Assembly (NCBI GenBank): GCA_034189655.1
Contig: JAXHUE010000002.1
Coordinates: 32,207-96,206, forward strand
Source of the DNA: Chloroflexota bacterium
Lineage (GTDB): Bacteria > Chloroflexota > Dehalococcoidia > E44-bin15
DNA: 64,000 nucleotides
Direction of reading: 5' to 3'
This document shows, piece after piece, positions 7,474 through 63,900 of this stretch. The stretch's first letter is position 1. Every line of letters begins with the position of its first letter. Made by a program: the position numbers and the translations under genes. Under the pieces are notes generated by a model. It saw only the letters and a list, made by a program, of their open reading frames with translations, did not search any database and was not told the origin of the DNA.

Positions 7474-8427
7474 CTACTGCTCCTCCTCCTGCAGCGCCTC
7501 GACCAGGGCCTCGATCTCGTCCACGGTGGCCGTGAGCGAGGCGAGGGCACACCGGCCCCCGCTCGATATCTCCACCCTCTCCAGGAGAGGCCCGGCCTCG
7601 GGTGGGAAGTCCTCGCTTAGAGGGATGAAGGTCTTGGCGGTGAGGAGCAGGGCGGCGAACGTGTTGGCCAGGGCAGAGGAGGTGAAGCACACCTTGACCT
7701 CTATGGTGACGTCCGGCCCCACCTTGTTGAGGCTGGCGCCCACCGCCTCCACGCTCTCCATCGTCTCTTCGTCAATGGGGATATCGTCGCCGGACACCTC
7801 GTCGATCGCCTGTGGCGGTATCTCTGCCGCCACCTTGACCCACACGTCGCCGAACGCAGTGTAGGTGTCGGCCACCGGGCCGCTTATCGGGGCCGCGTAG
7901 CCGACGGCGACATCGATGCCGTCGCGCACCGCCTCGTAGGTGCCGGCGATCACCATGGTGCTGCTCAAGAAGCAGAGGGCGCTCTCCCCGGTGGAGTCGG
8001 TGTATATCTGGTACCCCTGGTATTGGCCCGGGATCAGCTCCTCTCCGCTCTCCTGCTCGATGGCGTCGAGGAGTGCCCCCTGGTCGAACTGGCCTTCCAG
8101 GATGAAGGCCACGTAGTCCTCGACCTCACTGTCGGCGAACAGCACCATCTCGGTGAAGTCCCTGGGGTCGATGCCTGTCTCCGCCGTTACCTGTGCCAGC
8201 GCCTCGTCCACCGTCTGCGGCATGCCCGGGTCCTTCTCCGCCTGGTCGTAGGCCTCTATCAGGTCGGGGTCGGTGAGGATATCGTCTATCTGGATGCAGG
8301 CGATGGTGTTGGCCCGCTGCGGCAGGGGGTCGGTCACCGGCTCTGGAGCAGGGGGTGTGCACCCGGCCCCTACCACGGCGATGACCAGGGCGAGCGCGAT
8401 AGTGGCTGATACCGCCCTCTTCATCAT
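7474..8427 (-). CDS. Secreted/lipoprotein-like acidic protein of unknown function
   Basis: Signal peptide MMKRAVSATIALALVIAVVGAGC (lipobox-like GAGC), then a highly acidic soluble domain. Start placed at the ATG preceded by GGAGGTG. Confidence 0.6.
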   Translation of the reverse strand: MMKRAVSATIALALVIAVVGAGCTPPAPEPVTDPLPQRANTIACIQIDDILTDPDLIEAYDQAEKDPGMPQTVDEALAQVTAETGIDPRDFTEMVLFADSEVEDYVAFILEGQFDQGALLDAIEQESGEELIPGQYQGYQIYTDSTGESALCFLSSTMVIAGTYEAVRDGIDVAVGYAAPISGPVADTYTAFGDVWVKVAAEIPPQAIDEVSGDDIPIDEETMESVEAVGASLNKVGPDVTIEVKVCFTSSALANTFAALLLTAKTFIPLSEDFPPEAGPLLERVEISSGGRCALASLTATVDEIEALVEALQEEEQ

Positions 8428-8475
8428 GACGCACCTCCACACTAGTGGAGAATGATACCACCTCTTGCCTCATAA

Positions 8476-26209: not shown

Positions 26210-26284
26210 CGGGGCGTGGCGCAGTCCGGTTAGCGCGCAGCGTTCGGGACGCTGAGGTCGGTGGTTCAAATCCACTCGCCCCGA
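26210..26284 (+). tRNA. tRNA-Pro (anticodon CGG)
   Basis: Cloverleaf by hand: acceptor CGGGGCG/CGCCCCG, D-arm GCGC-AGUCCGGUUA-GCGC, anticodon arm CAGCG-UUCGGGA-CGCUG, T-arm GGUGG-UUCAAAU-CCACU, discriminator A, no encoded CCA. Confidence 0.85.
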
Positions 26285-42130: not shown

Positions 42131-42904
42131 CTACCTGCCCTTGAACTCCGGCTTTCGCTTCTCTATGAAGGCCCGCATCCCCTCCATGCGGTCCTCGCTG
42201 CTCAACAGGGTGGCGGCAGACTTGGACTCGTATTCCAGTGCCTCGAGGAGGCTCATCTGCATGCCCACGTTGACGCAGTACTTGAGCGCGCGCAGGGAGA
42301 GCGGCGGCCTCTCGGCGAGCTCGGCGGCCCATTTCTTGGCCTCTGCAATGAGCTCCTCCGGGGCCACCACCTTGTTCACCAGCCCGATGGTGTAGGCCTC
42401 CTCGGCGCCGATGCGGTTGCCGAAGTACAGGAACTCCTTGGCCCTGCCCGGCCCGATGAGGCGGGGCAGCCTCGCCGTGCCACCGCCGGCGGGGATGACG
42501 CCCAGCTTCACCTCGCCCAGCCCGAAGGTGGCGGCGGTGGACGCGATGCGGAAGTCGCAGCACAGTGCGAGCTCCAGGCCGCCGCCGTTGCAGGCCCCGT
42601 TTATGGCGGCTATCACCGGCTTTGACACGTCCTCCAGCTTGTTGAAGAAGGTATAGCGTCGGCCGATGGGGAGCGGCTTGGCCGTGGGGTCGGTGAGCTC
42701 CTTGATGTCGGCCCCGGCGCAGAAGCCCCTCCCGGCGCCGGTTAAGACCAGCACCCGCACCTCAGGATCGTCGAAGGCCTCGTCTACCAGCGCCTCCAGG
42801 TCGACGGCGAGCTGGTAGTTGATGGCGTTCAGGCGGTCCTCCCGGTTGAGGGTGACCATGCCGATGCCTTCTTCCTTCTGGTAGATCAGGGTTTGGTATG
42901 CCAT
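42131..42904 (-). CDS. Enoyl-CoA hydratase/isomerase (crotonase) family protein
   Basis: 257 aa. GAGRGFCAGADIKE oxyanion-hole motif. RBS AAGGAGG. Confidence 0.9.
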   Translation of the reverse strand: MAYQTLIYQKEEGIGMVTLNREDRLNAINYQLAVDLEALVDEAFDDPEVRVLVLTGAGRGFCAGADIKELTDPTAKPLPIGRRYTFFNKLEDVSKPVIAAINGACNGGGLELALCCDFRIASTAATFGLGEVKLGVIPAGGGTARLPRLIGPGRAKEFLYFGNRIGAEEAYTIGLVNKVVAPEELIAEAKKWAAELAERPPLSLRALKYCVNVGMQMSLLEALEYESKSAATLLSSEDRMEGMRAFIEKRKPEFKGR

Positions 42905-43207: not shown

Positions 43208-44422
43208 GTGGCAGAACAGGTGCTATCAGATGTCAAAGTGCTGGACGTCACCCAGCACATCGCTGGCCCCTACTGCACCAAGCTGCTCGCTGACTATGGG
43301 GCGGAGGTGATCAAGGTGGAGAGGCCCGGTCAGGGAGACCCGGCGCGCCGGCTGGGCCCTTTCTACGGCGATGAGCCTCACCCTGAGAAGAGCGGGCTGT
43401 TCGCCTATCTCAACACCAACAAGAAGGGCATAACACTGAACTTGGAGAGCGAGTGGGGCAAGAGGCAGTTCAAAGAGTTGGTAAAAGATGTCGATATCCT
43501 GGTAGAGAATTTCCCTCCCCGCGTGATGCCGGGTCTGGGCCTGGACTACAGCGTCCTGGAGCAGATAAATCCCAGGCTGGTCATGACCTCTATCAGCGAC
43601 TTCGGCCAGAGCGGTCCCTACCGGGACTACAAGGCATCGGAGATAATCATATACGGCATGGGCGGTGCCATGTTCTGCAACGGCCTGCCCGAGGAGGCGC
43701 CGCTCAAGAAAGGGCTCACGGTCACCCTGTTCCAGGGTGGGGTCATGGCGGTGGTGGCCACTATGATGGCGTTCCTCCTCGCCAGGGAGAGTGGCAGCGG
43801 CCAGCACGTCGATGTCTCCCTCTACGAGACCCAGATGGGCACCATAGACCGCCGCATGAGCCAGCTCATCGTGTACCAGTACAACAAGGCGGTGACCTAT
43901 CGTGCTGACCCATCGGTGAGGAGGATGTTCCCCTTCGGCATATACCCCTGCGACGACGGCCACTTCGAGCTGGCGGCGGTGGGCAACCTGTGGCCCGCCG
44001 TGGGCAGGATGATGGACATGCCGGAGCTCATCGAGGACCCGCGGTTCTCCAACATCATAGCCCAGATGACGCCGGGGCACCGCGATCAGTTCGACGAGAT
44101 ATGGTACCCCTGGATAATAGAGCGCACCAAGAAGGAGATCGTCACCAAGGGTCAGGAGGGCGGAGCCCTCTGCGGCCCGCTGGCCACCATGGAGGAGGTG
44201 GTGAACGACCCTCACTTCAACGCCCGTAACTACTTCCGCGAGATAGAGCACCCCGTGATCGGGAAGGTCACCTACCCCGGCCCACCCATTAACAGCGGCT
44301 CGCTGCCCTGGGAGATCAGGAGCGCCGCCCCACTCCTAGGCCAGTACAACGAAGAGGTCTATGGCCGGCTGGGCTACTCCAGGGAGGACCTGGTCGCCTT
44401 AAAGGGCCAGGGGCTCATCTAG
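43208..44422 (+). CDS. Family III CoA-transferase (CaiB/BaiF), subunit 1 of a tandem pair
   Basis: 404 aa. N-terminal VLDVTQHIAGPYCTKLLADYGAEVIKVE and conserved Asp region typical of CoA_transf_3. Confidence 0.9.
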   Translation: MAEQVLSDVKVLDVTQHIAGPYCTKLLADYGAEVIKVERPGQGDPARRLGPFYGDEPHPEKSGLFAYLNTNKKGITLNLESEWGKRQFKELVKDVDILVENFPPRVMPGLGLDYSVLEQINPRLVMTSISDFGQSGPYRDYKASEIIIYGMGGAMFCNGLPEEAPLKKGLTVTLFQGGVMAVVATMMAFLLARESGSGQHVDVSLYETQMGTIDRRMSQLIVYQYNKAVTYRADPSVRRMFPFGIYPCDDGHFELAAVGNLWPAVGRMMDMPELIEDPRFSNIIAQMTPGHRDQFDEIWYPWIIERTKKEIVTKGQEGGALCGPLATMEEVVNDPHFNARNYFREIEHPVIGKVTYPGPPINSGSLPWEIRSAAPLLGQYNEEVYGRLGYSREDLVALKGQGLI

Positions 44423-44437
44423 GTAAGGAGGAAGGAA

Positions 44438-45742
44438 ATGGCTAAACTACCGCTGGAAGGCGTGAGGGTAGTGGAGGTCTGCCCCATATGGGCGGGCCCG
44501 TTCGCCTGCATGCTTTTAGCCGACTGGGGGGCCGAGGTCATCCGCGTGGAGTCCAGGTACCACTTCCCGGTGTATACCCGCGGCGTGCTCGCCCGTCCCC
44601 CGATACAGCTCGCAGAGCAGACACCGTCCGGCTATGCCGCCTACTGCCTCGAGGGGTACGACCCTCAAAAGGCGTTGAACCAGTTCGTGCTCTTCAATGC
44701 CCACGCCCGCAACAAGCTGGGGATGACCGTTGACTTGAGGCGGCCCGAGGGCAAGGACATATTCAAGAGGCTGGTCAAGGTGAGTGACATAGTCATAGAG
44801 AGCCAGTCCCCGCGGGTGATGGAGGAGCTGGAGCTCACCTACGACGCGCTCAAGGAGGTGAACCCCAGTCTCATCATGGTCTCGCTGCCCGCCTTCGGGC
44901 AGACCGGGCCCTACAAGTACTACCGGGCGCTGGGGGCCCACCAGGAGGGGTTCGTGGGCCATACCTACCTGCGGGGGTATGCCGACCGCGACCTCAGCAA
45001 CAACGTCACCCTGTACCAGACCGACGAGACCGGCGGGGCCACCTGCGCCTTCGCCGCCCTCATGGCCCTGCACAAGAGGCGGCGCACCGGCGAGGGCATG
45101 TACGTGGACATGAGCCAGTCCGAGGCCACCATCTCCATCCTGGCACAGGCGGTGATGGACTACACCATGAACGGCCGCGTCACGGAGCGGATGGGCAACC
45201 GCGACTACCACGGGGCCATCCAGGGCTGCTACCGCTGCTGGGGCCGGGACGACTGGGTCTGCATCACCATAAACAGCGAAGAGGAGTGGGATGGCTTCGT
45301 GCGCGCCCTGGGCGAGCCCCAGTGGGCCGCGGACGATAAGTTCTCCGACCACGTGCTGCGCCTGAAGAACCACGACGAGCTCGACCGCCACATCGAGGCG
45401 TGGACCCGCCAGCACGAAAAGTACGAGGTGATGCACCTGCTCCAGGCGGAGGGTGTGCCCGCGGGACCGGTGCTGGACGAGCGGGATGCCTACACCGACC
45501 CCCACATGAGGGAGCGGGGTTTCTTCCAGGAGCTCACCCAGGCCGACTGCGGCACCCACCTCTACCCGGGGCTGCCCTGGCGCATGAACAAGACCCCCAA
45601 CGAGGTCAAGAGGCCCCCGGTGCGCTTCGGGGAGCACAACGAGTACGTGTACAAGCAGGTCATCGGGGTGTCTGACGAAGAGTACCAGTTCCTGGAGAAG
45701 GAGGGCCACATCGGCACACACTACATCCCGGAGATGTTCTAG
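44438..45742 (+). CDS. Family III CoA-transferase (CaiB/BaiF), subunit 2 of a tandem pair
   Basis: 434 aa. VVEVCPIWAGPFACMLLADWGAEVIRVE. 15-nt spacer with RBS AAGGAGGAAGG after the previous gene. Confidence 0.9.
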   Translation: MAKLPLEGVRVVEVCPIWAGPFACMLLADWGAEVIRVESRYHFPVYTRGVLARPPIQLAEQTPSGYAAYCLEGYDPQKALNQFVLFNAHARNKLGMTVDLRRPEGKDIFKRLVKVSDIVIESQSPRVMEELELTYDALKEVNPSLIMVSLPAFGQTGPYKYYRALGAHQEGFVGHTYLRGYADRDLSNNVTLYQTDETGGATCAFAALMALHKRRRTGEGMYVDMSQSEATISILAQAVMDYTMNGRVTERMGNRDYHGAIQGCYRCWGRDDWVCITINSEEEWDGFVRALGEPQWAADDKFSDHVLRLKNHDELDRHIEAWTRQHEKYEVMHLLQAEGVPAGPVLDERDAYTDPHMRERGFFQELTQADCGTHLYPGLPWRMNKTPNEVKRPPVRFGEHNEYVYKQVIGVSDEEYQFLEKEGHIGTHYIPEMF

Positions 45743-47505: not shown

Positions 47506-47621
47506 GGTGCCCCCTGCTCTTCGTCCAGCCTGCGGCGGGTATTGACGTGGGTGGTGGCAGGGGATAAGATTAGCTACAGTATGCTCGAACGTTGCCCGCA
47601 GCAATTACGTACGTGCCCGCG

Positions 47622-50600
47622 ATGAGGTACTATCTTGGCATTGACGTCGGCTCGGTCGGCGCCAAGCTGGCCCTGGTCGACGAGGGATACTCCATAGTGA
47701 GGCTCGACGGCGAGAGGATAACCTCCAGCCCCACCGCTGCCGTCGCCTCGCTTATCTCCAGGCTGGGCCGCGATGTCGACCTCGGTGCAGTCGAGGCCGC
47801 CGGCTGCTCCGGCTCCGGGAGGGGAGTGATACCCGCGGACATGGGCTGGGCGGGGTACAGCAGCTCGCTCGCCGTCGCCTCCGGCCTCCTCCACCTCCAT
47901 CCCCAGGCCAGGACCGTCATCCAGATAGGCGGGCAGAGCTCCCTGGTGATAACGCTGGAGGACGGGCTCAAGAAGCCGTGGAAGGTGGCCTCGAACCCCC
48001 TCTGTGCCGCCGGCACCGGCAGGTTCCTGGAGCAGCAGGCCTATCGCCTGGACATCAGCATGGAGGACTTCTCCCGCCTGGCACAGGAGTACAAGGGCCA
48101 GGCGCCGCGGATAGCGGCCCGCTGCAGCGTGTTCGCCAAGACCGACCTCATCCATCTCCAGCAGAAGGGTGTGCCACTGGGGGCCATGCTCTGTGGCCTG
48201 TGCGACAGCATCGCCCGCGGCGTGGCCTCCTTGACCAGGGGCCCCCTGGAGGAGCCGATATATTTCGTAGGTGGGGTCGCCGCCAACGGCGCCATCGTGC
48301 AGGCCCTGGAGGAGGTGCTCTCGGCGAGGGGCGGCCACCGGGTGCAGGTGACCGTTCCCCGGGACTGCCGCCACGTAGAGGCCCTGGGCGCCGCCCTGCT
48401 GGCGCGGGGCTCGGGGAGGCGCTCCACCGTGGCCGCACTGCCCAGGTTGAGCGCCGGGCAGCGCTACTGGGAGCTGCCCCCGCTTGAGAGGCAGGACGGC
48501 CGGGAGGAGTGGCACCGGCCCGATCTATCGCCGCCGTTGGAGGGGTACCTGGGCGTCGATGTCGGCTCCACCAGCACTAAGGCCGTGGTCCTGGACCGCT
48601 CTGGGGGCGAGGTGCTGGCCAAGTGCTACCTCATGACGCAGGGGCGGCCCGTCGATGTCGTCAAGGAGGTGTGCCGCAACCTGCTCCGCGATGTGGGTGA
48701 GGGGGCACACATACTGGGGGTGGGCGTCACCGGCTCGGGCAGGTACCTGGTGGGCAGCTTCATCGGCGCCGACGTCATCAGGAACGAGATCACGGCACAG
48801 ACCAGGGCCGCCGCAGAGATCGACCCCGATGCCGATATCATCGAGATCGGCGGCCAGGACTCCAAGCTGGTCATCAAGAGGAACGGCGTCGTCGTCGACT
48901 ACCAGATGAACAAGGCGTGTGCCGCCGGCACCGGCAGCTTCATCGACGAGCTCGCCGAGCAGCTCGGCGTGTCGGTGAAGAACGGCGACTTCGCCCGGCT
49001 GGCCTTCGATGCCCCCTACACCATAGACCTGGGGTCGCGGTGCGCCGCCTTCATGGGACAGGCCGTGGCCGCGGCGCGGCAGGAGGGGGTCTCTATAGAG
49101 GTGATAGCGGCCAGCCTGGCCAACTCCATCGCCTCGAACTACCTCTCCAAGGTGGTGGGGATGAGGAGGCTGGGGGAGAGGGTGATACTCACCGGGGCGG
49201 TGTTCTATAACGACGCCGTGGTTTCCGCATTCACCCACGCGCTCGAGGGCAGGGAGACCGTCGTGCCCCGGCACAAGGAGGTGAGCGGTGCCATCGGTGC
49301 CGCCCTCCTCGCCAGGGAGGAGATGGTGGGGGGCGGCTCCCGGTTCAAGGGGTTCCGCGAGATAGTCGAGAGCGACTATACGCTGAAGACGTTTACCTGC
49401 AAGCGGTGCGAGAACAACTGCACCATAAGCCGGATGCAGATGCCCAACGAGCCGGCGACATACTACGGGAGCAGGTGCGACCGCTACGACGCCCGCTTCG
49501 ACCAGAAGAAGGTGGAGACCGCCTTTGACGAGCGGGAGAGGCTGCTCTTCGCCGGCGTGAGGGAGGCGACGGGCACCGGGCCCACCGTGGGCATCCCCAG
49601 GGCGCTCATCATATATGACTACGCCCCGCTCCTCATCGGCTTCTTGAGCGAGCTGGGGGCCAGGCCCGTCCTCTCGGGGCGGACCAACAAGCAGGTCATG
49701 GAGCAGGCCGTCGAGCTCAGCTACCCCGATAGCTGCTTCCCCGTGAAGCTGCTGCACGGGCACGTGGCCACCCTCGAAGAGGTCGACTACATCATGCACC
49801 CCTGCGCCATCAGGCTGGGCAGGAAGGAGGGGGATGAGAACCAGAAGTACTCCTGCCCGCTGGTGCAGGCGGCCCCCTTCATCGTGCGCCAGGCATTTGA
49901 CCTGGGGAAGAGGCTGCTGGTGCCTATCATCGACCTGAGCCGCGGCGACGACGATACCATAGAGAGCCTGGCCGACTGTGCCGTCGAGATGGGGTACCGC
50001 CGCCGAGAGGGCCGCCGGGCGGCCATCGCCGCCATGAGGCGACAGCGGGAGTTCGAGGCCAGCCTGGAAGAGCGGGGCAAGGCCCTCCTGGAGGAGCTCC
50101 ACCGCGGCGACAGGCTGGGCGTGGTGTTCCTGGCCCGCTCCTACATGTCGCAGGACTCAGGGGCCAACCTGGGCATCGCCGAGAAGCTGGCCCAGCTCGG
50201 CGTGGTGCCGATACCGCTCGACTTCCTCCCCCTGGCCCAGGTGGATGTCGGCGAGTACTCCGACCGCCCCTACTGGTACTACGAGGGCAAACACATCGCC
50301 GGTGCCGCCCTGGTCGCCCAGGACCCCCAGCTCTACGGGCTGGTGCTCACCAACTTCGGCTGCGGCCCCAACTCCTTCGTGCTCAACATCGTCGAGGACA
50401 TCATGGGGGGCAAGCCCCTGGGCCAGCTCGAGATAGACGAGGACGCCGCGGAGGCCGGCATCGTCACCCGCCTCGAGGCCTTCGTCGATACCATAAAGGG
50501 ATTTGCCTCCTCGGGCAGGTCGGAGCACGTCAGGGCGTGGGACCAGGGTGCCTATCGCTCGGCGCCCACGCTGGTGAACGCGAAGAAGCTGCTCTTGATA

Positions 50601-51770
50601 CCGCGGATGGCCCCCCACGCCGAGGTGCTGGGCGCGGCCATGGAGGCGTTCGGGGTGAGGGCCATGGTCATGCCCGAGTCCAGCGAGCAGTCCCTGCTCT
50701 ACAGCAACAAGGTCACCTCGGGGAGGGAGTGCCTGCCCTACCGCGTCACCCTGGGCGACTTCATCAGGTTCTTCAACGAGAATGGCGCAGACGGCATAGA
50801 CAGGGATGAGGTCGAGGGCTTCATGGCCAGCGCCTTCGGGCCGTGCCGCTTCGGCAAGTACGCCGTGGAGCAGAGGAGGGCCCTCGCCGAGATGGGGTAC
50901 AGCCTGCCCATGCGCACCACGGTATCCAACAATGCCTATCGGGACCTGGGCCTGGGCCCCGCCTTCGAGCGGCTGGCGTGGCGGGGGATCGTCGCCGTAG
51001 ACTACCTGGAGCGGCTCCTGTGGGGCACACGCCCCTACGAGCGGGTGCCGGGCCGTGCCGACGAGCTCTTCGGCGGCTACATGGCCAGGGTCGTTGGGTG
51101 TGTGCGCCGGCGGGAGGACATGGGCCCTGTCCTTAAGGAGGCCGCCAGGGAGTTCTGCGCGCTCAAGGACCCTGCGCTGCCCAGGAGGCCGCTGGTGGGA
51201 ATAAACGGCGAGATATTCCTGCGCGCCAACAAGTTCAGCAATAACGACCTGGTGGGGGAGTGCGAGCGTGCCGGCCTGGAGGTGGTGGTCTCCTCCATGG
51301 GGGAGTGGCTGCGCTACATCCAGCACCGCAACCTGGAGGACGGCTTACAAGACCACAAGGTGAAGAAGGTGGTCACAAGCTACATCAGGAACCTGATACT
51401 GGAGCGCGACGAGCGCTCTGTAGCCGTACACGTCGCGGGCTCCGTGGACGGCGAGGAGCCGTCCATCCACGAGATACTGTCACAGTGCAGCCGCTACCTC
51501 TCCCCGCGGTGCGGCAGCGAGGCAGTGCTCAGCATAGGGGTCGGCGTCGAGTGGATGGAGAGAGCGGACTTCGCCGGCGTCATATCGGTGATGCCGCACG
51601 GGTGCATGCCTGGCGGCATCGTAGCCGCCATGTCCGAGCGCCTGAGCGCCGCCTACCGCAAGCCGTGGATCACCCTCACCTACGACGGGTTCATGGAGAG
51701 CACCAACCCGGAGAGGGTCCACAACTTCGCTGAGGTGATACGGTTCTGCAGGGACGGGGCCTCTCTCTAG
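47622..51770 (+). CDS. Giant fused protein: two BadF/BadG/BcrA/BcrD (HgdC-like activase) ATPase domains plus C-terminal DUF2229/dehydratase-component-like domain
   Basis: About 1382 aa. Domain 1 YYLGIDVGSVGAKLALV...CAAGTGRF. Domain 2 YLGVDVGSTSTKAVVLD...CAAGTGSF (actin-fold ATPase motifs, duplicated). Cys cluster CKRCENNC...C, then an approximately 780-aa Cys-containing C-terminal region. Promoter TTGACG-17-TAAGAT at about 47538. Confidence 0.85.
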   Translation: MRYYLGIDVGSVGAKLALVDEGYSIVRLDGERITSSPTAAVASLISRLGRDVDLGAVEAAGCSGSGRGVIPADMGWAGYSSSLAVASGLLHLHPQARTVIQIGGQSSLVITLEDGLKKPWKVASNPLCAAGTGRFLEQQAYRLDISMEDFSRLAQEYKGQAPRIAARCSVFAKTDLIHLQQKGVPLGAMLCGLCDSIARGVASLTRGPLEEPIYFVGGVAANGAIVQALEEVLSARGGHRVQVTVPRDCRHVEALGAALLARGSGRRSTVAALPRLSAGQRYWELPPLERQDGREEWHRPDLSPPLEGYLGVDVGSTSTKAVVLDRSGGEVLAKCYLMTQGRPVDVVKEVCRNLLRDVGEGAHILGVGVTGSGRYLVGSFIGADVIRNEITAQTRAAAEIDPDADIIEIGGQDSKLVIKRNGVVVDYQMNKACAAGTGSFIDELAEQLGVSVKNGDFARLAFDAPYTIDLGSRCAAFMGQAVAAARQEGVSIEVIAASLANSIASNYLSKVVGMRRLGERVILTGAVFYNDAVVSAFTHALEGRETVVPRHKEVSGAIGAALLAREEMVGGGSRFKGFREIVESDYTLKTFTCKRCENNCTISRMQMPNEPATYYGSRCDRYDARFDQKKVETAFDERERLLFAGVREATGTGPTVGIPRALIIYDYAPLLIGFLSELGARPVLSGRTNKQVMEQAVELSYPDSCFPVKLLHGHVATLEEVDYIMHPCAIRLGRKEGDENQKYSCPLVQAAPFIVRQAFDLGKRLLVPIIDLSRGDDDTIESLADCAVEMGYRRREGRRAAIAAMRRQREFEASLEERGKALLEELHRGDRLGVVFLARSYMSQDSGANLGIAEKLAQLGVVPIPLDFLPLAQVDVGEYSDRPYWYYEGKHIAGAALVAQDPQLYGLVLTNFGCGPNSFVLNIVEDIMGGKPLGQLEIDEDAAEAGIVTRLEAFVDTIKGFASSGRSEHVRAWDQGAYRSAPTLVNAKKLLLIPRMAPHAEVLGAAMEAFGVRAMVMPESSEQSLLYSNKVTSGRECLPYRVTLGDFIRFFNENGADGIDRDEVEGFMASAFGPCRFGKYAVEQRRALAEMGYSLPMRTTVSNNAYRDLGLGPAFERLAWRGIVAVDYLERLLWGTRPYERVPGRADELFGGYMARVVGCVRRREDMGPVLKEAAREFCALKDPALPRRPLVGINGEIFLRANKFSNNDLVGECERAGLEVVVSSMGEWLRYIQHRNLEDGLQDHKVKKVVTSYIRNLILERDERSVAVHVAGSVDGEEPSIHEILSQCSRYLSPRCGSEAVLSIGVGVEWMERADFAGVISVMPHGCMPGGIVAAMSERLSAAYRKPWITLTYDGFMESTNPERVHNFAEVIRFCRDGASL

Positions 51771-51780
51771 CGCCGCGCGC

Positions 51781-53220
51781 CTACGTGTCCACGCGAACGC
51801 AGTTCCGGCCCTCCTCCTTGGCCCGGTAGAGGGCCTCGTCGGCGGTCTTGATGAGCTCGGTCTCGTTTCCGGTGTCCTCTCTGAGCGTGGACACGCCCAG
51901 GCTCACGGTGACCTGTACGGTGTTGCCTTCGCAGGGGAACGGGTGGCCCTCCACGATCTCGCGCAGCCTCTCGGCGATGTTGACTGCCTCGTCTGAGTCG
52001 GTGCCGGGCAGGAGTATGGCGAACTCCTCGCCGCCGTACCTGGCCACCGTGTCCTCTCTGCGCACGTAGTCCATCAGGACCTTCGACAGCTCCGCGAGCA
52101 CGGCATCTCCTTGAAGGTGACCGTAGGTATCGTTTATCCTCTTGAAGCGGTCGATGTCCACCATGATGCAGGAGAGGGGGCTGCTGTGTCGCCGGGCCCG
52201 CGAGAACTCTTCCTCGATGCGGGCATAGAAGTAGCGGTGGTTGAAGGCCCCGGTGAGCCCGTCGGTGATGGCCGACCTCCGTTCCAGTGCGTAGAGACGG
52301 GCATTGTCCAGGATGGAAGGAGTCCTGCTGACGAAGATCTCAAGCGTACCCTGGTCGTCGCTGCCCAGGGGGCTGCCACCGCCCTTGTCGATGGCGATGA
52401 TGCCGAGCATCCTGCCCTTGGTCTCCAGGGGCACTATCTCCAGGTGGCCATGCTCACCGCCCTGGACATCGGGGTGGAAGGTCTCGTCGAGCCCGATGAC
52501 CCTCACCGACAGGTTATCGGTGTCGACATCGATGTTGCGCCGGCGCAGCTCCTGGAGCAGGCTGGAGACGAAGGCAGAGGCCGCCACCTTTTCGGTGGAG
52601 CCGTGGAGCGTCAGGGTATCGGTGTGGATGACGAGGAGGCCTGCCATCTCGAAATCGAGGACGCGGCCCATGAGGCTGAGTATGGCCTCGGCGAGGGCGT
52701 TGTCGTCCTCGATACGTGCCACCTCGTCGAGGTCGTTGCGTATCGTCGCCTCCTTCAGCTTCTTGTCGAGGAGGGCACTCACCTTGGTCACCACCGCGGT
52801 GTCGTCGCCCCCGGCCTTCACGTCGACGTAGCGGGACTGCGGTGTTCCCGCGTTTCTGTCCAGGAGGGCCCTTATCTTGTCCATCAGCTCGCGGTGGTCG
52901 AAGGGCTTGGTGAGGTAATCGTCGGCGCCGGTCTTGGCCCCCCAGTACTGGTCGCCCTTGCCGGCGAGCGCGGTGAGCATAAGTATCGGTATGTGGGCCG
53001 TGCGCTCGTCGTTCTTTATCAGCCGGCATGCCTGGTAGCCGTCGAGGCCGGGCATTATCACATCCATGATGATGAGGTCTGGCACATGGTCAAAGGTCTG
53101 GTGTACTGCCTGGATGCCGTCGAAGGCGGTGATGACGTCGTAGCCGCTGGCCTCCAGCCTGCGCTGGATCAGCCTCACGTTCACCTCGCTGTCGTCGACG
53201 ACCAGTATCTTATCTGGCAT
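51781..53220 (-). CDS. Response regulator: REC domain, middle (GAF-like) domain and GGDEF diguanylate cyclase domain
   Basis: ILVVDDSEVN...DVIMPGLDG phospho-acceptor region, RYGGEEF active-site motif. 479 aa. Confidence 0.9.
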   Translation of the reverse strand: MPDKILVVDDSEVNVRLIQRRLEASGYDVITAFDGIQAVHQTFDHVPDLIIMDVIMPGLDGYQACRLIKNDERTAHIPILMLTALAGKGDQYWGAKTGADDYLTKPFDHRELMDKIRALLDRNAGTPQSRYVDVKAGGDDTAVVTKVSALLDKKLKEATIRNDLDEVARIEDDNALAEAILSLMGRVLDFEMAGLLVIHTDTLTLHGSTEKVAASAFVSSLLQELRRRNIDVDTDNLSVRVIGLDETFHPDVQGGEHGHLEIVPLETKGRMLGIIAIDKGGGSPLGSDDQGTLEIFVSRTPSILDNARLYALERRSAITDGLTGAFNHRYFYARIEEEFSRARRHSSPLSCIMVDIDRFKRINDTYGHLQGDAVLAELSKVLMDYVRREDTVARYGGEEFAILLPGTDSDEAVNIAERLREIVEGHPFPCEGNTVQVTVSLGVSTLREDTGNETELIKTADEALYRAKEEGRNCVRVDT

Positions 53221-53340
53221 ATGCTCTCCCCCTCGTCACTCTTGACCTGATGGGTCCATTTTACTTGACAGAACGATGACAATATTATACCATGCCGCTG
53301 TAGAATAATAACACAGGCGTCGTAAAAACCCCAAGAGACA

Positions 53341-53430
53341 CGAAAAAGGCAAACCCTGGGAAATCAGGGGACGCAAAGCTGCGAGTCTACGGCGAAAAAG
53401 GTGCTATGACGGTCGGGCTGCCGAAACTAA
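53341..53430 (+). promoter_or_regulatory. Candidate c-di-GMP-I (GEMM) riboswitch aptamer in the 5' leader of the hybrid kinase gene
   Basis: AAGGCAAACC-CUGG-GAAA-UCAG-GGGACGCAAAGCU matches the Vc2 aptamer core GGGCAAACC-AUUC-GAAA-GAGU-GGGACGCAAAGCC with identical spacing (complementary 4-bp stems around a GAAA tetraloop). The 3' half is a CGGCG...UGCCG-closed helix containing CUAUGA (tetraloop-receptor-like). I could not fold P1 by eye. Confidence 0.6.
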
Positions 53431-53500: not shown

Positions 53501-56500
53501 ATGAAGAGAGGGGATGTGAGCAAGCAGGACCAGGGAGTTGAGGGCAGGAAGAGGGAGGCAAAGCGGGAGGAGGAGGTCCCGGAAGAGGGGCTTCTGGAGC
53601 GGGTTGAGAGCAGTGCCGAGGAGCTCGAGCGCTCGGAAGAGCGATACCGGGAACTTGTAGAGAACATAAACGACGGCTATCTGGTGGTGAGGGGGCGAAA
53701 GGTCGTTTTCGCCAACAGGCGGTGCGCCGACCTCCTGGGATACCCGGTGAGGCAGATCGTAGGGAAGAACTTCGCAGACCTCGTAGCCGAGGAGTCGCGT
53801 GAGGGGGCGGCAGAACTCTACAAGAGGAGCATGAGCGGGGAGCGACTGTCAGAGCGCCGTGAGGCCTTATTACGGCGAAAAGACGGTACAAAAGTACCGG
53901 TCGAAATGACCCTAAAGGACATCACCTATGATGGCAGGCCCGCTGTCTCTGCCATGTTCTGTGATATCACGGAGAGAAAGGGAGTGGAGCGTGAGCTGTG
54001 GCGGAGGACGTTTGAGCTCGGCGAGCGAGTCAAGGAGCTGAACTGCCTCTACAGCCTCTCCAATCTGGTGCAGCGGCGGGATATAGCGCTCGCTGAAGTA
54101 TTTCAGGGCGCGGTCGAGCTCGTCCCCCCGACATTGCAGTACCCTGATGTGGCGTGTGCCCGGCTGCTCATCGAGGGCCAGGAGTACAGGACGGGCAACT
54201 TCGTCGATACCGAATGGAGGATAAGCTGCGATGTCACTGTGCATGGCGAAGTCATAGGGAAACTGGACGTCTGTTACGCAGAAGAGGTACAGAAGAGCTA
54301 CGGGGGCGTATTCCTTCCAGAGGAGAGGGCACTGCTCCATGCCGTCTGCGGGCGGCTGGGTGAGACCATAGAGAGACGGCGGGCGGAGGGGGAGATTAGG
54401 GCCTCGAAGGAGAAGTACCGCCACCTGCTCGAGGAGATACACGATGGCTACCTGGTGGTACAGGGGGGAAGGGTGGTCTTCGCCAACACGCGCCTGGGGG
54501 AGATACTGGGCTACGGCCCTGAGGCGCTGGGGCGTCCCGTCAATGAGTTCATGCCAGAGTATCTACTGGGCCGGGCGACCGAGCTACGGGAGAGGGTGGT
54601 AAGCGGCGAGGACATATCAGAGCCCATGGAGACCACGGTGCTCACCAAGGACGGCGCCGAGCTGCCCATAGAGGTCAGTATTAAGACGACAGAGTACGAG
54701 GGGAAGCTGGCCATCGCTGTGCTGGTGAGGGACATCTCCGAGCGCAGGCGCGCCGAGGAGATGCGCAGGCGCGAGGAGGAGAAGTACCGCTACCTGTACG
54801 AGTATCAGCCTGCGGTGAACTTCATTATTGGCAATGATGGGACACTGGTGGACATCAATCAGGCGGGCCTGTCCACGTTTGGCTATACGAAGGATGAGCT
54901 CGTGGGCAGGGGTGTCCTCGACCATGTCGTCCCCGAGGAAAGGGAGCGCGTGGCACAGCAGATGGCCAGGGCATTCCAGGGTGAACACACGCCGGGGCTG
55001 GACGTGGATATCTACGCCAGTGACGGCTCGGTCCACACCATGTGGTTCTCACCGGGCCACGTGATCCCGGCGGATGGGGCGCAGCAGGCCATCATGCTCG
55101 CCACCGGTGTCGACGTCACCGAGCGTAAAATGGCGGAGGAGGAGCGCAGGCGCGCGGAGGAGAGGTACCGCCAGCTCCTGGAGGACATAGACGACGGCTA
55201 CTTCGTGGTCCAGGACGGAAAGATAGTCTTTGCCAACACCAGGTGCACCGAGATCCTGGGCTACGGGCCGGAGGCCATTGGGGAGTCTGTGGCCACCTTC
55301 GTGCCGCCGGGACAGGAGCATCACATAGCCGCCTTCGGGGAGGCCTTCTCCGGAGAGGGTGAGGTGGCGCTGCACGACGAGATGTCGGTGCTCACCAAGG
55401 ATGGCAGCGAGGTCCCGGTGGAGATACACGCCAGGAGGGCGCTGTACATGGGTCGGCCCGCCCTCACCGTCGTCATCAGGGACATCTCGGAGCGCGCGCG
55501 CGCGGAGCGGGAGCTCAAGGCATCGGAGCAGAGGTACAAGGCGCTCCTGGAGGACATAAACGACGGTTACTTCGTGGTCCAGGACGGCGTGATAGTGTTC
55601 GGCAACGGGCGGCTGGCCGAGATGTTCGGATATTCGCTCGATGAGGTGCTGGGCAGCCGGCTCGTCGACATTGCGCTGGACAGCGCAAAGGATATGGTGG
55701 CGCTCATGATGTTCGCCTTCGAGCAGGGAGGGGCCGTCCCGGAGCGCGTGGAGATTACCGGGACCGATCCCAGGGGGGGCGGCGATATCACCATAGAGAT
55801 AAGGATGAGCGTCATCGACTACCTGGGACGGCCGGCCATAAACGGCATCATCAGGGACATTACCGACCGCAAGCGCGTTGAGATGGCGCTTCAGGCGGAG
55901 AAGGCCTACTCCCAGTCGCTGGTGCACAGCCTGCCCGATATGCTGCTCACCATAGACCCTGAGGGCAAGATAAGCTATGCCAACGATGTGATGGTGGTCT
56001 TCACTGGCGTAGAGCTGGAGCAGCTCGTGGGGAGGCCCCTGGGGCAGGTACTGCAGGAGATAAATATCCTGGACGCCCGGACGGCCACCCTCGTTACCAG
56101 GCGCATGAAGAAACGGTTGAAGACAGGCCTGCCGGCGCGGGGCGTAGAGCTGGAGATGAGAAATGCCAGGGGTGAGTGGGTGAAAGGCCTGTACTCGACC
56201 TCTGTGATAAAGTCCCCCAGCGGCGAGATCCTGGGGCAGGTGGTGGTCATCAGTGACATCACCGACCGCGTGAAGGCAGAAGAGGAGCTCAAGCGGTCGG
56301 AGGAGAAGTACCGCAGGCTGGTGGAGGACATAAACGACGGCTACTTCGTGCTCCGCGATACCACCATCCTCTTTGCCAACGAGAGGATGGCGGAGATGAT
56401 GGGCTACGGCCTCGATGAGATCGTCGGGGAGGAGTTCCTCAGGTTCCTCGCACCAGAGGCGATAGAAGTGCCCACGCAGGTACACCAGAGGAGCATGGCC

Positions 56501-59869: not shown

Positions 59870-61099
59870 TCATTCCAGCATATGCTCCAGTATGTAGCGG
59901 TCGATGTCCTCCTCTGGTATCCCCAGCAGGTCTCTCAGTATCTCATCGTTGTGCTCGCCGAGCATGGGTGCAGACTTGTGGGTACTGCCCGGCGTGCGCG
60001 ATAGCTTTATGGTGACGCTGTCGTAGGTGGTGCGGCCGGCCTCAGCGTGGTCGAGGCGGACGTAGTGCTCCCTGGCCTTGATGTGGGGGTCATGGACCAG
60101 CAGGTCTTGGGAGGTCTGCACCACGCCAGCGGCGACACCCCCCATCTGCATCAGCATCATCACCTCCTCTGCCGTCCTCTCCGCGGTCCACTCTGCCACC
60201 AGCCGGTCCAGCTCCTCCTCGTTGGCCTTGCGGCCCAGGTGGGTGGCGAACCGCTCTTCCCTGGTCCAGGATGGGTTGCCGATGACGTTGCAGAAGGCCT
60301 GCCACTCCCCGTCGCTTGCGACGGCGATGGCGCACCAGCGGTCGTCTCCCTTGCAGGGGTAGGTGGAGTGGGGGGCGGCGTGGGGCACGCGGTTGCCCTG
60401 GCGGGTCTGCACCCTCCCGTTTACGGTGTAGTCCAGGACGGCGCTGTCCAGCGTGGCCACGGTGGACTCGTACTGGGACACCTCGATGAGCTGTCCCTTG
60501 CCCGTCTTGCGCCGGTGGCGCAGCGCCGAGACCATGGCCAGTACGGTGTGGTACGGGTTGGGGGCATAGTCCGGGTAGTTCACACCGGTGCCGATGGGGA
60601 TGCGGTCGGGGTAGCCTGAGAGATAGGTGAACCCGGTGAGCGACTGGAGCGCCACCCCGAAGCCCACGTAGTCGCGGTGCGGCCCCCACAGCCCCCACAT
60701 CGGCATCCTGACCATGATGATATCGGGCTTTACCTTCGCCACCTCTTCATAGGAGAGTCCCCAGTCCTCCATCACGTGGGGGACGAAGTTCTCGATGACG
60801 ATGTCGCTCACCTTGATGAGCCGCCTGGCTACCTCCCGCGCCTCGGCGAAGTTCATGTTCAAGGCGATGCCCTTCTTCCCGCTGTTCAAGTTGTTGGCCC
60901 AGCCGCCCACGTTGACCCCGGCCTTATCGGGCACGGTGGGCGCGGCCAGCCGCAGCGCATCGATGTGGGCAACGGACTCTATCTTGATCACCTCGGCGCC
61001 GAACTCGGCGAGGACGCGGGTGGGGATGGTGCCCGCCGCGTACCAGGTGAAGTCACATACCCTGATCCCCTCGAAGGGAAGTCTTGTCTTCCGCTCCAT
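59870..61099 (-). CDS. Family III CoA-transferase (CaiB/BaiF), subunit 2 of second tandem pair
   Basis: IRVCDFTWYAAGTIPTRVLAEFGAEVIKIE. Start at MERKTRL (ATG 61099); the track ORF has a 43-codon extension. Confidence 0.85.
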   Translation of the reverse strand: MERKTRLPFEGIRVCDFTWYAAGTIPTRVLAEFGAEVIKIESVAHIDALRLAAPTVPDKAGVNVGGWANNLNSGKKGIALNMNFAEAREVARRLIKVSDIVIENFVPHVMEDWGLSYEEVAKVKPDIIMVRMPMWGLWGPHRDYVGFGVALQSLTGFTYLSGYPDRIPIGTGVNYPDYAPNPYHTVLAMVSALRHRRKTGKGQLIEVSQYESTVATLDSAVLDYTVNGRVQTRQGNRVPHAAPHSTYPCKGDDRWCAIAVASDGEWQAFCNVIGNPSWTREERFATHLGRKANEEELDRLVAEWTAERTAEEVMMLMQMGGVAAGVVQTSQDLLVHDPHIKAREHYVRLDHAEAGRTTYDSVTIKLSRTPGSTHKSAPMLGEHNDEILRDLLGIPEEDIDRYILEHMLE

Positions 61100-61110
61100 G
61101 ACGACCTCCT

Positions 61111-62397
61111 TTATATGATGCCCCGTGAGGTGAGCAGCTCGAGCTCCTGGCGAGAGAGGCCCAGCTCCTTGTGGTATACGTCCAGGTTGTGCTCGCCCAC
61201 CAGGGGTGGTCTCCCCTTTACCTGCCATGGGGTCTCTGAGAGCCTGTAGGGAGGCCCGGCGTACTTTATGGTCACGCCCAGCTCGGGGTGGTCCACCTCG
61301 ACGAAGTAGTCGCGGTCATTCAGGTGAGGGTCGTTGACCAGGCCCGCCGGGTCGCTCACCGGGGCGCATATGAAGTGCTGGCGCTGCCCCTCCTCGTAGA
61401 GCTCGGCCACGGGGTGTGCCGCCAGGAACCTCTTGAACACCTGGTCCAGGTGTTCCATGCGCATCATCCGCTCCAGGAAGGCGTCGGTGCCGATTAAGCT
61501 CATCATGGCGGTGCGGTCGCCCACAGACTTGATGAAGTCTTGCCACTCCTCGTTCATGAGGTCTTCGGCCATGCCCTTGGAGTCCATCCACTTCACCACG
61601 TTTTCCCAGTCGATGAGGAGCAGCCACAGCATGTAGCCGTCCTTGCACTGGTAGACGTCCCTCCCCGGGACGCGGATGCCCAGTCCCCCTACCGGCGTCC
61701 CGCCGAAGCCCCAGCGCTTCCTGATCTCATTGCGCAGGTCGTAGAACTGCATCGCCGTCTCCATGGCGATGGTGGTGCACTCCTGCCGCGAGATGTCGAT
61801 GGCCTGCCCCTCGCCGCTCACGTCCCGCTCGAAGAGGGCGATGGAGATGCCGGCGGCGCCGTGGAGGGAGCCCATGTAGTGTGACTGGTAGCCGTACGTG
61901 CGGTAGGGTGCCGCATCGGGAAAGCCCCCCAGGTACATGAGACCGCCCATGGCCACGACGACGATGTCCGGGGCCTTGAAGTCGCGGAAGGGGCCGCTCT
62001 GTCCGAAGCCGCTTACGGAGCAGAAGATGAGCCCCTGGTTTATCTCCTTCAAGACGTCGTATCCCAGGCCCATCTTCGCCATGTGCCCCGGGGGGAAGCT
62101 CTCCACCAGGACATCGGCGCCCTCCACCAGCCGCTTCAAGAGCGCGCGGCCGTCTGCGGTATCGAGGTTCAGCGTGATCCCGCGCTTGCTCCGGTTCAAG
62201 GCGAAGAAGTGAAGGCTCCGCTCCGGGCCGGGGATATCGTGCACGAATGGCCCCATGCCCCGTGATAGGTCACCGCCTGGGGGCTCCACCTTGATCACGT
62301 CGGCGCCCAGCTCGGCGAGGAGCTGGCTGGTGTAGGCGCCGACGTCATCGGCGAGGTCGAGCACCCTGATGTCGCCCAGAAGTGTCTCCTGTAGCAC
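61111..62397 (-). CDS. Family III CoA-transferase (CaiB/BaiF), subunit 1 of second tandem pair
   Basis: IRVLDLADDVGAYTSQLLAELGADVIKVE. 428 aa. 11-nt spacer to the downstream paralog. Confidence 0.9.
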   Translation of the reverse strand: MLQETLLGDIRVLDLADDVGAYTSQLLAELGADVIKVEPPGGDLSRGMGPFVHDIPGPERSLHFFALNRSKRGITLNLDTADGRALLKRLVEGADVLVESFPPGHMAKMGLGYDVLKEINQGLIFCSVSGFGQSGPFRDFKAPDIVVVAMGGLMYLGGFPDAAPYRTYGYQSHYMGSLHGAAGISIALFERDVSGEGQAIDISRQECTTIAMETAMQFYDLRNEIRKRWGFGGTPVGGLGIRVPGRDVYQCKDGYMLWLLLIDWENVVKWMDSKGMAEDLMNEEWQDFIKSVGDRTAMMSLIGTDAFLERMMRMEHLDQVFKRFLAAHPVAELYEEGQRQHFICAPVSDPAGLVNDPHLNDRDYFVEVDHPELGVTIKYAGPPYRLSETPWQVKGRPPLVGEHNLDVYHKELGLSRQELELLTSRGII

Positions 62398-62779
62398 TAT
62401 CGCACCTCCGTTATGTTGGAAAGGTTATAGCTGGGGCTACCCCACAGATGAGGCAGCCACTATCGGTGGCACACGGGATATGGAAGCTGATGAGGGTGTT
62501 TCTATACCTCCCTTTCTGTGCGTAGCGTTCTTTAGATGGGCAGCATATTCGGTCGAAGCCTGGCGGCAGGTACAGTGCGGGGAAGGGGAAGAAGGCATGC
62601 GCCGTTAGTATACCACGTATAGAGTGCTTGTCAAGATACCCGGGGGAGGGCCCTCCGGGGGTGCGTGGCTCCACAGGCGTTCGCTTCTGCGGTGGAGGAG
62701 ATGGCGGGGCGTGCTCTGTGGGCCGGTCCAGGGTGTAGGTAGAGCAGCGGTCGAAATACCTCCTTCCGGCTATCACAAC

Positions 62780-62808
62780 TTGACATTTTGCGAATAAAAA
62801 ACTAGACT
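62780..62808 (+). promoter_or_regulatory. Promoter TTGACA-17-TAGACT for the GAF-LuxR regulator
   Basis: Consensus -35, 17-nt spacer, -10-like TAGACT 24 nt before the ATG. Confidence 0.45.
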
Positions 62809-62832
62809 GTAGATGTCGGCTGGAGTGGGAAG

Positions 62833-63900
62833 ATGACAGTATCAGGCAACATTCCCCGCGGCCGGGAGGTCGTACTCCAAGGTGGCGAGAGGTTCGGCCT
62901 GCCACTCCTTGAGGTGGGCAGGGCTCTCGTGTCGCTGGCCGATGTTCAAAGCCTGCTCATGCTCACCATAGCGAAGGCCGTAGAGGGCATAGAATCGGCT
63001 GACGCTGGACTGATCTGCCTCTACGATAACACACAGGGCAAGCTTATGGTGAAGGCCGCCTTCGGCTACGGCCAGGAGGTCTGGAATATATCGGCCAACC
63101 CGGAGAGGGGCGGCGCTCCAGGGATGGTGTATAAGACTCGCCGCAGCAGGATATGGTCGTCGCCCGAAGAGGTCAGCGGGCTGATAGCCAGCCTGGACAC
63201 CTGGGACCAGCAGCACCTCACAAGGGCGCGGAGGAGGCTCCCGCGTCCCACCAGCGTGGTGTGCAGCCCTCTTATGGCCAAGGACAGGTTCATCGGGTGT
63301 ATTCACCTGGAACACTACACCAACCCTGCCCCGTTTTCCATGTGCGACCTCGCACTGCTGCACTCGTTCGCAGAGCAGGTATCACTTGCCGTAGAAAACG
63401 CCATGCTCTTCAAGGAAATGCAGCGCAAAGAGACGACGTGGTCCGAGCTGCTCTACTGGCTGCTCATCGCCCGGGAGTACGAGCGAAGGCGTATCATGTC
63501 GGTGCTGGAGGACGATGTCAACCAGGTGCTGGAGGTCCTGGACGCAGAGCTGGAGGTCCCGGAGAGTGAGCTGAAAGGCCTGGCCGGGCAGCACCAGGGC
63601 ATGAGGGCGATGCGGGACAACCTGTATAAGATAGTGGACGAGATGCATAGCCTGTCACCGAGCACGAGGGTTGTGCCTCTGGGTGGAGAGGAGGAGAGCT
63701 ACGATGGTCTCACCTCAAGGGAGAAGCAGATAATCCGGCTGGTGGCGGAGGGGAGGACCAACAAAGAGATCGCCGACCTTCTGTGCATAAGTATAAGGAC
63801 CGTGCAGTCCCACCGCGCCAACATAATGGAAAAGCTCGAGATGCATGACCGCACTGAACTGGTGCGCTATGCCATTCGTAAGGGCCTTGTCACCCCTTAG
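62833..63900 (+). CDS. GAF-domain plus LuxR-type HTH transcriptional regulator
   Basis: N-terminal GAF-like region. C-terminal LTSREKQIIRLVAEGRTNKEIADLLCISIRTVQSHRANIMEKL is the LuxR/FixJ HTH signature. Confidence 0.85.
   Translation: MTVSGNIPRGREVVLQGGERFGLPLLEVGRALVSLADVQSLLMLTIAKAVEGIESADAGLICLYDNTQGKLMVKAAFGYGQEVWNISANPERGGAPGMVYKTRRSRIWSSPEEVSGLIASLDTWDQQHLTRARRRLPRPTSVVCSPLMAKDRFIGCIHLEHYTNPAPFSMCDLALLHSFAEQVSLAVENAMLFKEMQRKETTWSELLYWLLIAREYERRRIMSVLEDDVNQVLEVLDAELEVPESELKGLAGQHQGMRAMRDNLYKIVDEMHSLSPSTRVVPLGGEEESYDGLTSREKQIIRLVAEGRTNKEIADLLCISIRTVQSHRANIMEKLEMHDRTELVRYAIRKGLVTP

Follow-up and report, generated by a model that had tools for sequence, protein, structure and literature searches.

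Two tandem pairs of CaiB/BaiF coenzyme A-transferase genes in a Chloroflexota genome probably encode heteromeric enzymes of the BbsEF type

We analysed a 64-kb stretch of DNA (hereafter the window; G+C content ~65%) from a Chloroflexota metagenome-assembled genome (MAG), which carries two tandem pairs of genes for class III (CaiB/BaiF) coenzyme A (CoA)-transferases. Each pair very probably constitutes a bicistronic operon for one heteromeric enzyme of the BbsEF type. Within each pair the product of the upstream gene is of a BbsE-like type, termed α here, and that of the downstream gene is of a BbsF-like type, termed β. Pair 1 lies on the forward strand and consists of P1a (α; 43208..44422, 404 aa, NCBI MDY6906794.1) and P1b (the predicted catalytic β; 44438..45742, 434 aa, MDY6906795). 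Pair 2 lies on the reverse strand and consists of P2a (α; 61111..62397, 428 aa, MDY6906803) and P2b (the predicted catalytic β; 59870..61099, 409 aa, MDY6906802.1). The mechanical open reading frame (ORF) of P2b reaches 61228, and the true start is the ATG at 61099, which yields the same 409-aa protein as in the NCBI annotation. All four proteins match PF02515 (CoA_transf_3) over its full length, covering 364-366 of the 366 profile positions with E-values between 1e-87 and 1e-110 (P1a, 3.7e-97; P1b, 1.6e-99; P2a, 3.7e-87; P2b, 2.4e-110), and the GC content by codon position indicates that all four ORFs are coding. The two tandem pairs proposed in the initial annotation are therefore real. Of ten window proteins compared with NCBI entries by exact sequence, nine are present under '[Chloroflexota bacterium]', these four among them. 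NCBI names each of the four exact sequences only 'CoA transferase [Chloroflexota bacterium]', and all four score far below the curated cutoffs of the NCBIfam equivalogs (Frc, succinyl-CoA:mesaconate, succinate-glutarate, CaiB and others).

The genes of pair 1 are separated by 15 nt (44423..44437, forward strand; gtAAGGAGGaaggaa) and those of pair 2 by 11 nt (61100..61110, reverse strand; AAGGAGGtcgt). Each spacer contains an AAGGAGG ribosome-binding site, just as the initial annotation had described a strong site within 11-15 nt, and these features count as translational coupling, in favour of a heteromer. The pair 2 spacer is identical in L002, a 98%-identical contig from another sample, and the changes between that contig and the window (eight synonymous and three non-synonymous in P2a, six and seven in P2b) are too few to be informative. 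Both pairs are adjacent, co-oriented genes for two distinct paralogous subunits, and neither encodes two CoA_transf_3 domains in one polypeptide. P1a and P1b lie in the same frame, with one TAG and five codons (VRRKE) between them, and the two genes of pair 2 are out of frame with each other. To speak of two such arrangements in one locus is too strong. Each pair forms a bicistronic unit of its own, on opposite strands and 14 kb from the other, and six unrelated genes intervene (a nitroreductase, an MBL hydrolase, a 1392-aa activase-like protein, a GGDEF response regulator, a 1980-aa PAS kinase and a response regulator).

Partners within a pair share only 29-31% identity and are therefore old paralogs, far below the 90% identity that would have marked a recent duplication. 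Identities across the pairs are 37% for P1a and P2a and 35% for P1b and P2b. In a search of all sequences in the PDB, the upstream genes found their best match in chain A and the downstream genes in chain B of 9fn0, the solved BbsEF structure, whose chains are described as 'subunit of benzylsuccinate CoA-transferase'. The E-values for chains A and B, respectively, were 2.1e-50 and 1.2e-34 for P1a and 3.5e-63 and 3.5e-39 for P2a, while for the downstream proteins they were 4.3e-32 and 3.4e-57 (P1b) and 2e-27 and 2.3e-92 (P2b). The cross-chain matches are thus weaker by 16 to 65 orders of magnitude. Identities to the corresponding chains range from 29 to 41% across the four proteins, with 32% for P2a to chain A and 41% for P2b to chain B. 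Together with the tree described below, these reciprocal best matches identify the two partners of a pair as type orthologs of different BbsEF chains, although for P1a alone the assignment is marginal. Many P2b homologs also carry the Joint Genome Institute (JGI) label 'BbsF subunit'.

The aspartate at the column of Frc and CaiB D169 is the conserved nucleophile of class III CoA-transferases (PMC5592240; PMC6006322). E. coli Frc, YfdE and CaiB served to anchor this column in an alignment that also contained 190 related domains, both BbsEF chains and the window proteins. The column holds Asp in P1b (D196, codon 45023-45025), in P2b (D177, codon 60569-60571) and in 9fn0 chain B. In contrast, it holds Leu174 in P1a (codon 43727-43729), His173 in P2a (codon 61879-61881) and Tyr in 9fn0 chain A, and there is no acidic residue within three positions on either side of P1a Leu174 or P2a His173. 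The canonical catalytic residue of the PF02515 class is accordingly present in β, whereas α has the fold only. In the alignment of P2b to chain B, NYPD stands opposite NYTD and D177 is aligned with Asp178 of the chain. PDB entry 9fol bears the title 'BbsEF, D178-CoA adduct'. Counted from the printed alignment, D178 falls in chain B at the D169 column. Thus, the experimentally trapped nucleophile of the model enzyme is the β residue aligned with P2b D177. The nucleophile is confined to the F-type subunit, and the window pairs share this asymmetry with BbsEF. We also considered a catalytic Asp in the 'GPYRDY...' region, which would have left β without the residue, and this placement was ruled out by the Frc/CaiB D169 anchoring and the D178-CoA adduct of 9fol. 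The comparison with BbsE/BbsF, Frc and CaiB called for in the initial annotation therefore places the partners with different BbsEF chains and in two clades, with the Asp only in the downstream gene.

These results bear on the possibility that the four genes encode independent homodimeric CoA-transferases, that is, tandem paralogs with different substrates which are merely co-transcribed. Most characterised class III enzymes are homodimeric (PMC5592240), CaiB/BaiF paralogs number in the dozens in genomes of Chloroflexota and SAR202 (PMC5395668), and a β protein with its Asp could act alone. An α protein without the nucleophilic Asp, however, cannot be an active homodimer by the canonical mechanism. 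The conservation of the arrangement speaks on the same question. A search of contigs from one genome per species with a β-type profile returned 80 loci, mostly from Dehalococcoidia and other Chloroflexota, with some from Deltaproteobacteria, Binatia, Actinomycetota and Firmicutes, and pairing was counted for 91 β-type domains in 79 loci from other species. An α gene lies immediately upstream on the same strand for 60 of the 91 domains, and a further 17 are fused to α in a single ORF of ~800 aa. The two are therefore coupled in 77 of 91 cases (~85%), always in the order α then β. Six further β-type domains have an α gene upstream at more than 400 nt, and only a handful are unpaired, some of them at contig edges. 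Since the tandem arrangement recurs in ~85% of related loci from other species, it is not due to chance. The asymmetry of the active-site column recurs as well: of the 77 coupled cases, 73 have an α without the Asp (Tyr being the commonest residue) and 76 have a β with it.

A neighbour-joining tree separates the two subunit types into two pure clades, containing 92 of the 99 α-scored and 93 of the 97 β-scored sequences. P1a and P2a fall in the α clade and P1b and P2b in the β clade. The outliers are all unpaired, Asp-bearing, ordinary CoA-transferases, and the homodimeric enzymes of E. coli score equally on the α and β profiles and lie outside both clades. P1a and P1b have their nearest relatives in one shared set of partner pairs (L003 5607-8225, L053 and L059), and P2a and P2b likewise share theirs (L003 2896-5459 and L004). 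Over 83 pairs, α-α and β-β identities correlate with r = 0.78, a value in which the shared species phylogeny is still included, and 500 permutations of the partners gave a maximum r of 0.19. The α and β partners thus appear to co-evolve. Mean identity is 36% between α proteins and 40% between β proteins, indicating that α is not decaying. For the independent homodimers, conserved order across phyla (77 of 91, with the 17 fusions), co-evolution of the partners and the more than 110 further fusions that match pair 1 are all unfavourable. Unpaired CoA-transferases in the same loci provide a contrast, in that they fall outside both clades and keep the Asp. Independent homodimers are therefore very unlikely, and a heteromer of α and β remains the preferred interpretation of each pair.

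The closest orthologs of both pairs also occur together on a 9-kb metagenome contig (L003 2896-8225), where pair 2 and pair 1 orthologs are adjacent and form a run of four CoA_transf_3 genes in the order α-β-α-β. The run lies downstream of a gene for an SBP_bac_5 solute-binding protein, whereas the window carries the two pairs on opposite strands, at a distance of 14 kb.

As proxies for an αβ (α2β2) complex we used natural fusions, co-evolution and the AlphaFold2 predicted TM-score (pTM) of a concatenated chain. A search with concatenated P1a and P1b retrieved proteins of 830-880 aa that are 42-48% identical to the query over 99-100% of its length. More than 110 of these, nearly all of the 120 matches listed, are α-β fusions, and they come from Dehalococcoidia, SAR202 and other Chloroflexota. 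Across 71 aligned fusions the active-site column of the α half holds Gln in 57, Leu in 8 and other residues in 6, in no case Asp, and that of the β half is Asp in all 71. The linker between the halves is ~7 residues long, and the fused homologs are solitary genes in housekeeping contexts. The shared frame of P1a and P1b is probably a coincidence. The pair 1 ortholog in L003 (5607-6821 and 6852-8225) is likewise in frame, but stop-codon readthrough or recent fission of a fusion gains no support from this, since in-frame arrangements are not enriched among 63 split pairs (19:22:22).

AlphaFold2 was run on concatenated pair 1 (843 residues), guided by the alignment of natural fusions. The model has a mean predicted local distance difference test (pLDDT) score of 92.9 and a pTM of 0.94, with low confidence only at the junction (residues 390-408). 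A pTM of this size for 843 residues means that the two halves are confidently placed relative to each other, and the structure prediction proposed in the initial annotation thus yields a model in which pair 1 is predicted to fold as one compact unit. The top Foldseek matches of the model are the BbsEF chains, with template modeling scores (TM-scores) of 0.85-0.92 per half, normalised to target length.

The fusions and the model are also informative on whether α is a separate enzyme, performing other chemistry on the same fold (as a CoA-ester racemase, intramolecular transferase or lyase) before or after β in a pathway. α-Methylacyl-CoA racemase is a case of non-transferase chemistry on this fold. 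The mesaconyl-CoA C1-C4 transferase (PDB 8apq) and the lyase activity of DddD (PMC6006322) are others, and α is as conserved as β. Nevertheless, the active-site column of α varies widely (Tyr, Phe, Gln, Leu, His, Glu, Gly and others), which is not expected of a conserved alternative catalyst. Furthermore, the BbsE homolog was solved in one complex with BbsF (9fn0 chains A-D), and the ~7-residue linkers of the fusions and the pTM of the concatenated chain favour one assembly. A separate role for α is thus unlikely, and the data are better accommodated by α as a partner of β.

The surroundings of the pairs offer few indications of function. Divergent from pair 1 is a gene for an enoyl-CoA hydratase (ECH_1 by Pfam; 42131..42904, reverse strand), which may tentatively be considered a downstream enzyme for the CoA thioester from pair 1. 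On its 3' side, pair 1 is followed by a convergent nitroreductase gene, then the MBL hydrolase gene, then the gene for the 1392-aa protein (47592-51770, forward strand), in which Pfam detects two BcrAD_BadFG ATPase domains and DUF2229 ('CoA enzyme activase'). This last gene lies 1.8 kb downstream of pair 1 and is present in L002 as well. In 2-hydroxyacyl-CoA dehydratase pathways (the FldA/HadA systems), activators of the BcrAD_BadFG family act together with class III CoA-transferases. No dehydratase genes are adjacent to the activase-like gene, and the association does not recur in other α-β loci.

Pair 2 is flanked by a response regulator gene on one side and by a divergent gene for a GAF-LuxR (GerE) regulator on the other (Pfam; 62833..63900, forward strand), an arrangement that L002 keeps. 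By its position the GAF-LuxR protein is a candidate ligand-sensing regulator of pair 2. The intergenic region upstream of pair 2 contains good promoter-like hexamers in both directions. A TG-extended site that matches at 11 of 12 positions (TTGACA-16-TATACT; 62607..62634, reverse strand) lies ~210 nt upstream of P2a and is likely the promoter of the pair 2 operon. An ORF of 164 aa just upstream of P2a (62411-62905, reverse strand) has no Pfam match and no coding-type pattern of third-position GC (GC3), overlaps both the promoter region of pair 2 and the start of the LuxR-type gene, and is probably not a gene. The ECH_1 hydratase beside pair 1 and the GAF-LuxR regulator beside pair 2 are the only local hints to a role.

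The remainder of the window is mostly given to housekeeping and signalling (gyrA, lon, recA-recX-rny-ymdB, mnmG, nadE, plsY, hisF and cobalamin adenosyltransferases). Between the pairs, a c-di-GMP-I-GGC riboswitch (RF03167, 69 bits, E=3e-14; 53339-53426, forward strand) lies 75 nt upstream of the gene for the 1980-aa hybrid histidine kinase (53501-59443, forward strand), which has ~9 PAS domains, a GAF domain, HisKA/HATPase domains and two receiver domains. The gene for the response-regulator diguanylate cyclase (GGDEF; 51781-53220, reverse strand) is divergent from it, and the three together look like a cyclic di-GMP (c-di-GMP) feedback circuit that acts on the giant kinase. In L002 two ORFs, of 1699 and 288 aa, take the place of the single kinase gene. 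Elsewhere, two ORFs with high third-position GC have no Pfam match (10345-12816, 823 aa, and 7474-8442, 322 aa, both on the reverse strand), the former with unusually flat GC at codon positions 1 and 2 (0.53 and 0.54). The sole tRNA gene in the window is at 26210-26284 (forward strand; Rfam RF00005, 63.7 bits).

Genomic context also bears on whether the pairs serve an anaerobic hydrocarbon pathway, as true succinyl-CoA:(R)-benzylsuccinate CoA-transferases or as arylalkylsuccinate analogues of these. Among solved structures the BbsEF chains match best, chain B shares 41% identity with P2b, and the JGI names refer to a BbsF subunit. On the other hand, the 64-kb window contains no benzylsuccinate synthase, and no other functions of a bbs operon (thiolase, dehydrogenases) are encoded beside either pair. 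The only acyl-CoA dehydrogenase and short-chain dehydrogenase genes of the window lie 29-41 kb from pair 1, amid housekeeping genes. Identities to BbsE and BbsF of only 29-41%, with no NCBIfam equivalog cutoff reached, and the thousands of homologs in varied and often housekeeping contexts likewise argue against this assignment, which we regard as highly improbable. The substrate of the pairs is almost certainly different from that of BbsEF.

We also sought the substrate in the neighbours of the α-β pairs in other genomes. Short-chain dehydrogenase and crotonase genes each recur in 12 of the 80 loci, thiolase in 10 (accompanied by a DUF35-like protein in 7 of the 80) and acyl-CoA dehydrogenase in 7, and assignment of families by eye added a possible MaoC-like hydratase in 7 and an MmgE/PrpD-like protein in 6. 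These neighbours are β-oxidation-like and by analogy may echo the logic of the Bbs pathway. As no family exceeds 15% of the loci and the fused homologs occur in housekeeping contexts, context was rejected as a guide to the substrate.

Based on these results, we propose a mechanism for a heteromeric enzyme in which β (P1b, P2b) would supply the nucleophilic Asp and form acyl-aspartyl anhydride and aspartyl-CoA thioester intermediates. α (P1a, P2a), with the same fold but without the Asp, would serve as scaffold and as co-determinant of substrate binding. α and β would build the interlocked dimer characteristic of class III enzymes, and as in BbsEF the assembly may be α2β2. As the structures of Frc and CaiB show, each active site of a class III enzyme is formed where the large domain of one subunit meets the small domain of its partner. 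With such an inter-subunit site, α would contribute its small domain to a single competent active site, completed by the Asp-bearing large domain of β. In the enzyme's reaction, which would need no ATP, a free carboxylic acid would receive CoA from a donor thioester. By analogy with BbsEF, SmtAB and PhtSaSb the donor would probably be succinyl-CoA, the acceptor acids probably differ between the two pairs, and the product would feed enzymes of a β-oxidation type.

Several points weigh against this interpretation. P1a matches human SUGCT (9br6) with an E-value of 7.2e-50, a near tie with 9fn0 chain A (2.1e-50), and for this reason its assignment as α rests mainly on the tree, synteny and fusions. 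The α and β hidden Markov models (HMMs) were seeded with window proteins, which introduces some circularity, mitigated by the independent tree and the Asp column. β keeps every catalytic feature checked, such that activity as a homodimer is conceivable in principle. The AlphaFold2 chain is artificial and fusion-guided, and its interlocked topology and active-site geometry are predictions. Finally, neither the window nor the related loci have a consistent functional neighbour, and the CoA donor and substrate are guesses for that reason. Nonetheless, the heteromeric αβ organisation on the BbsEF model that had been suggested for these genes agrees with every sequence-based test that we ran.

The case itself is ordinary, as the two-subunit design is common in Chloroflexota and no new mechanism is revealed. 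Its value lies in how such genes are read. Four 'CoA transferase' genes read as two α-β enzymes halve the number of predicted activities, and the catalytic subunit is identified, with P1b D196 and P2b D177 as targets for mutagenesis. Our survey indicates that the BbsEF design, an Asp-less partner with a catalytic subunit, split or fused, is widespread in Chloroflexota outside hydrocarbon pathways. 'BbsE/BbsF' labels in KEGG should accordingly not be taken to indicate anaerobic toluene degradation. Expansions of CoA-transferases have been suggested as the driver of ATP-independent activation of recalcitrant organic acids (PMC5395668), and the share of the Chloroflexota CaiB/BaiF expansion that consists of Asp-less α and catalytic β may be under-appreciated. 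A broader hypothesis, to which we give even chances, is that the α proteins are true pseudoenzymes, which without an Asp serve as scaffold and confer specificity, and that obligate single-site α-β enzymes, split or fused, make up much of the CaiB/BaiF expansion of Chloroflexota (Dehalococcoidia, SAR202) and of some Deltaproteobacteria and Binatia, in place of ordinary homodimers. If this is true, substrate range would diversify through the variable α partner, and both the count and the interpretation of the 'dozens of CoA-transferases' in degraders of recalcitrant carbon would change.

The initial annotation took heteromeric class III enzymes to be exceptional, with BbsEF as the best-known case. 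Most are indeed homodimeric (PMC5592240), but heteromers are less rare than was implied, since SmtAB, PhtSaSb and the fused DddD and PtmU4 have also been described. Frc/YfdW, YfdE, CaiB and SUGCT have the Pfam family, the fold and the position of the catalytic Asp in common with β, and differ in being single-gene homodimers with two equivalent active sites, outside the α and β clades. Compared by description, SmtAB of Chloroflexus is, like the predicted window enzymes, a heteromeric class III enzyme with two different subunits and belongs to the same phylum (PMC5592240), whereas the pairs here have no other genes of the 3-hydroxypropionate bi-cycle beside them. PhtSa/PhtSb, also compared by description, form a BbsEF-like class III enzyme of two subunits (bioRxiv 10.1101/2022.07.29.502009); they differ in context, as the window yielded no genes for a phthaloyl-CoA decarboxylase of the UbiD/UbiX type.

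DddD and PtmU4 are two-domain, fused type III CoA-transferases (PMC6006322), and Landry et al. reported DddD as the best match of some SAR202 CaiB/BaiF paralogs (PMC5395668). Beyond its own species, pair 1 is most closely related to proteins of similar architecture, mostly single α-β chains of 830-880 aa with the sole catalytic Asp in the C-terminal (β) half. In the window, by contrast, the halves are separate polypeptides, and DddD has lyase activity in addition.

The closest likeness is to BbsEF, an α2β2 enzyme (PMC5592240). It too has two paralogous class III subunits in tandem, and each window gene corresponds to one specific chain. The F-type chain alone bears the Asp (D178, which corresponds to D177 of P2b and D196 of P1b), with Tyr in BbsE where the window proteins have Leu or His, and the predicted fold matches in each half. 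The differences are an identity of 29-41%, a setting without bbs or bss genes, and an origin in a Chloroflexota MAG instead of a toluene-degrading proteobacterium. Taken together, pathway context separates these pairs from the benzylsuccinate CoA-transferases, while their structural and genetic features are those predicted for heteromers of the BbsEF type.

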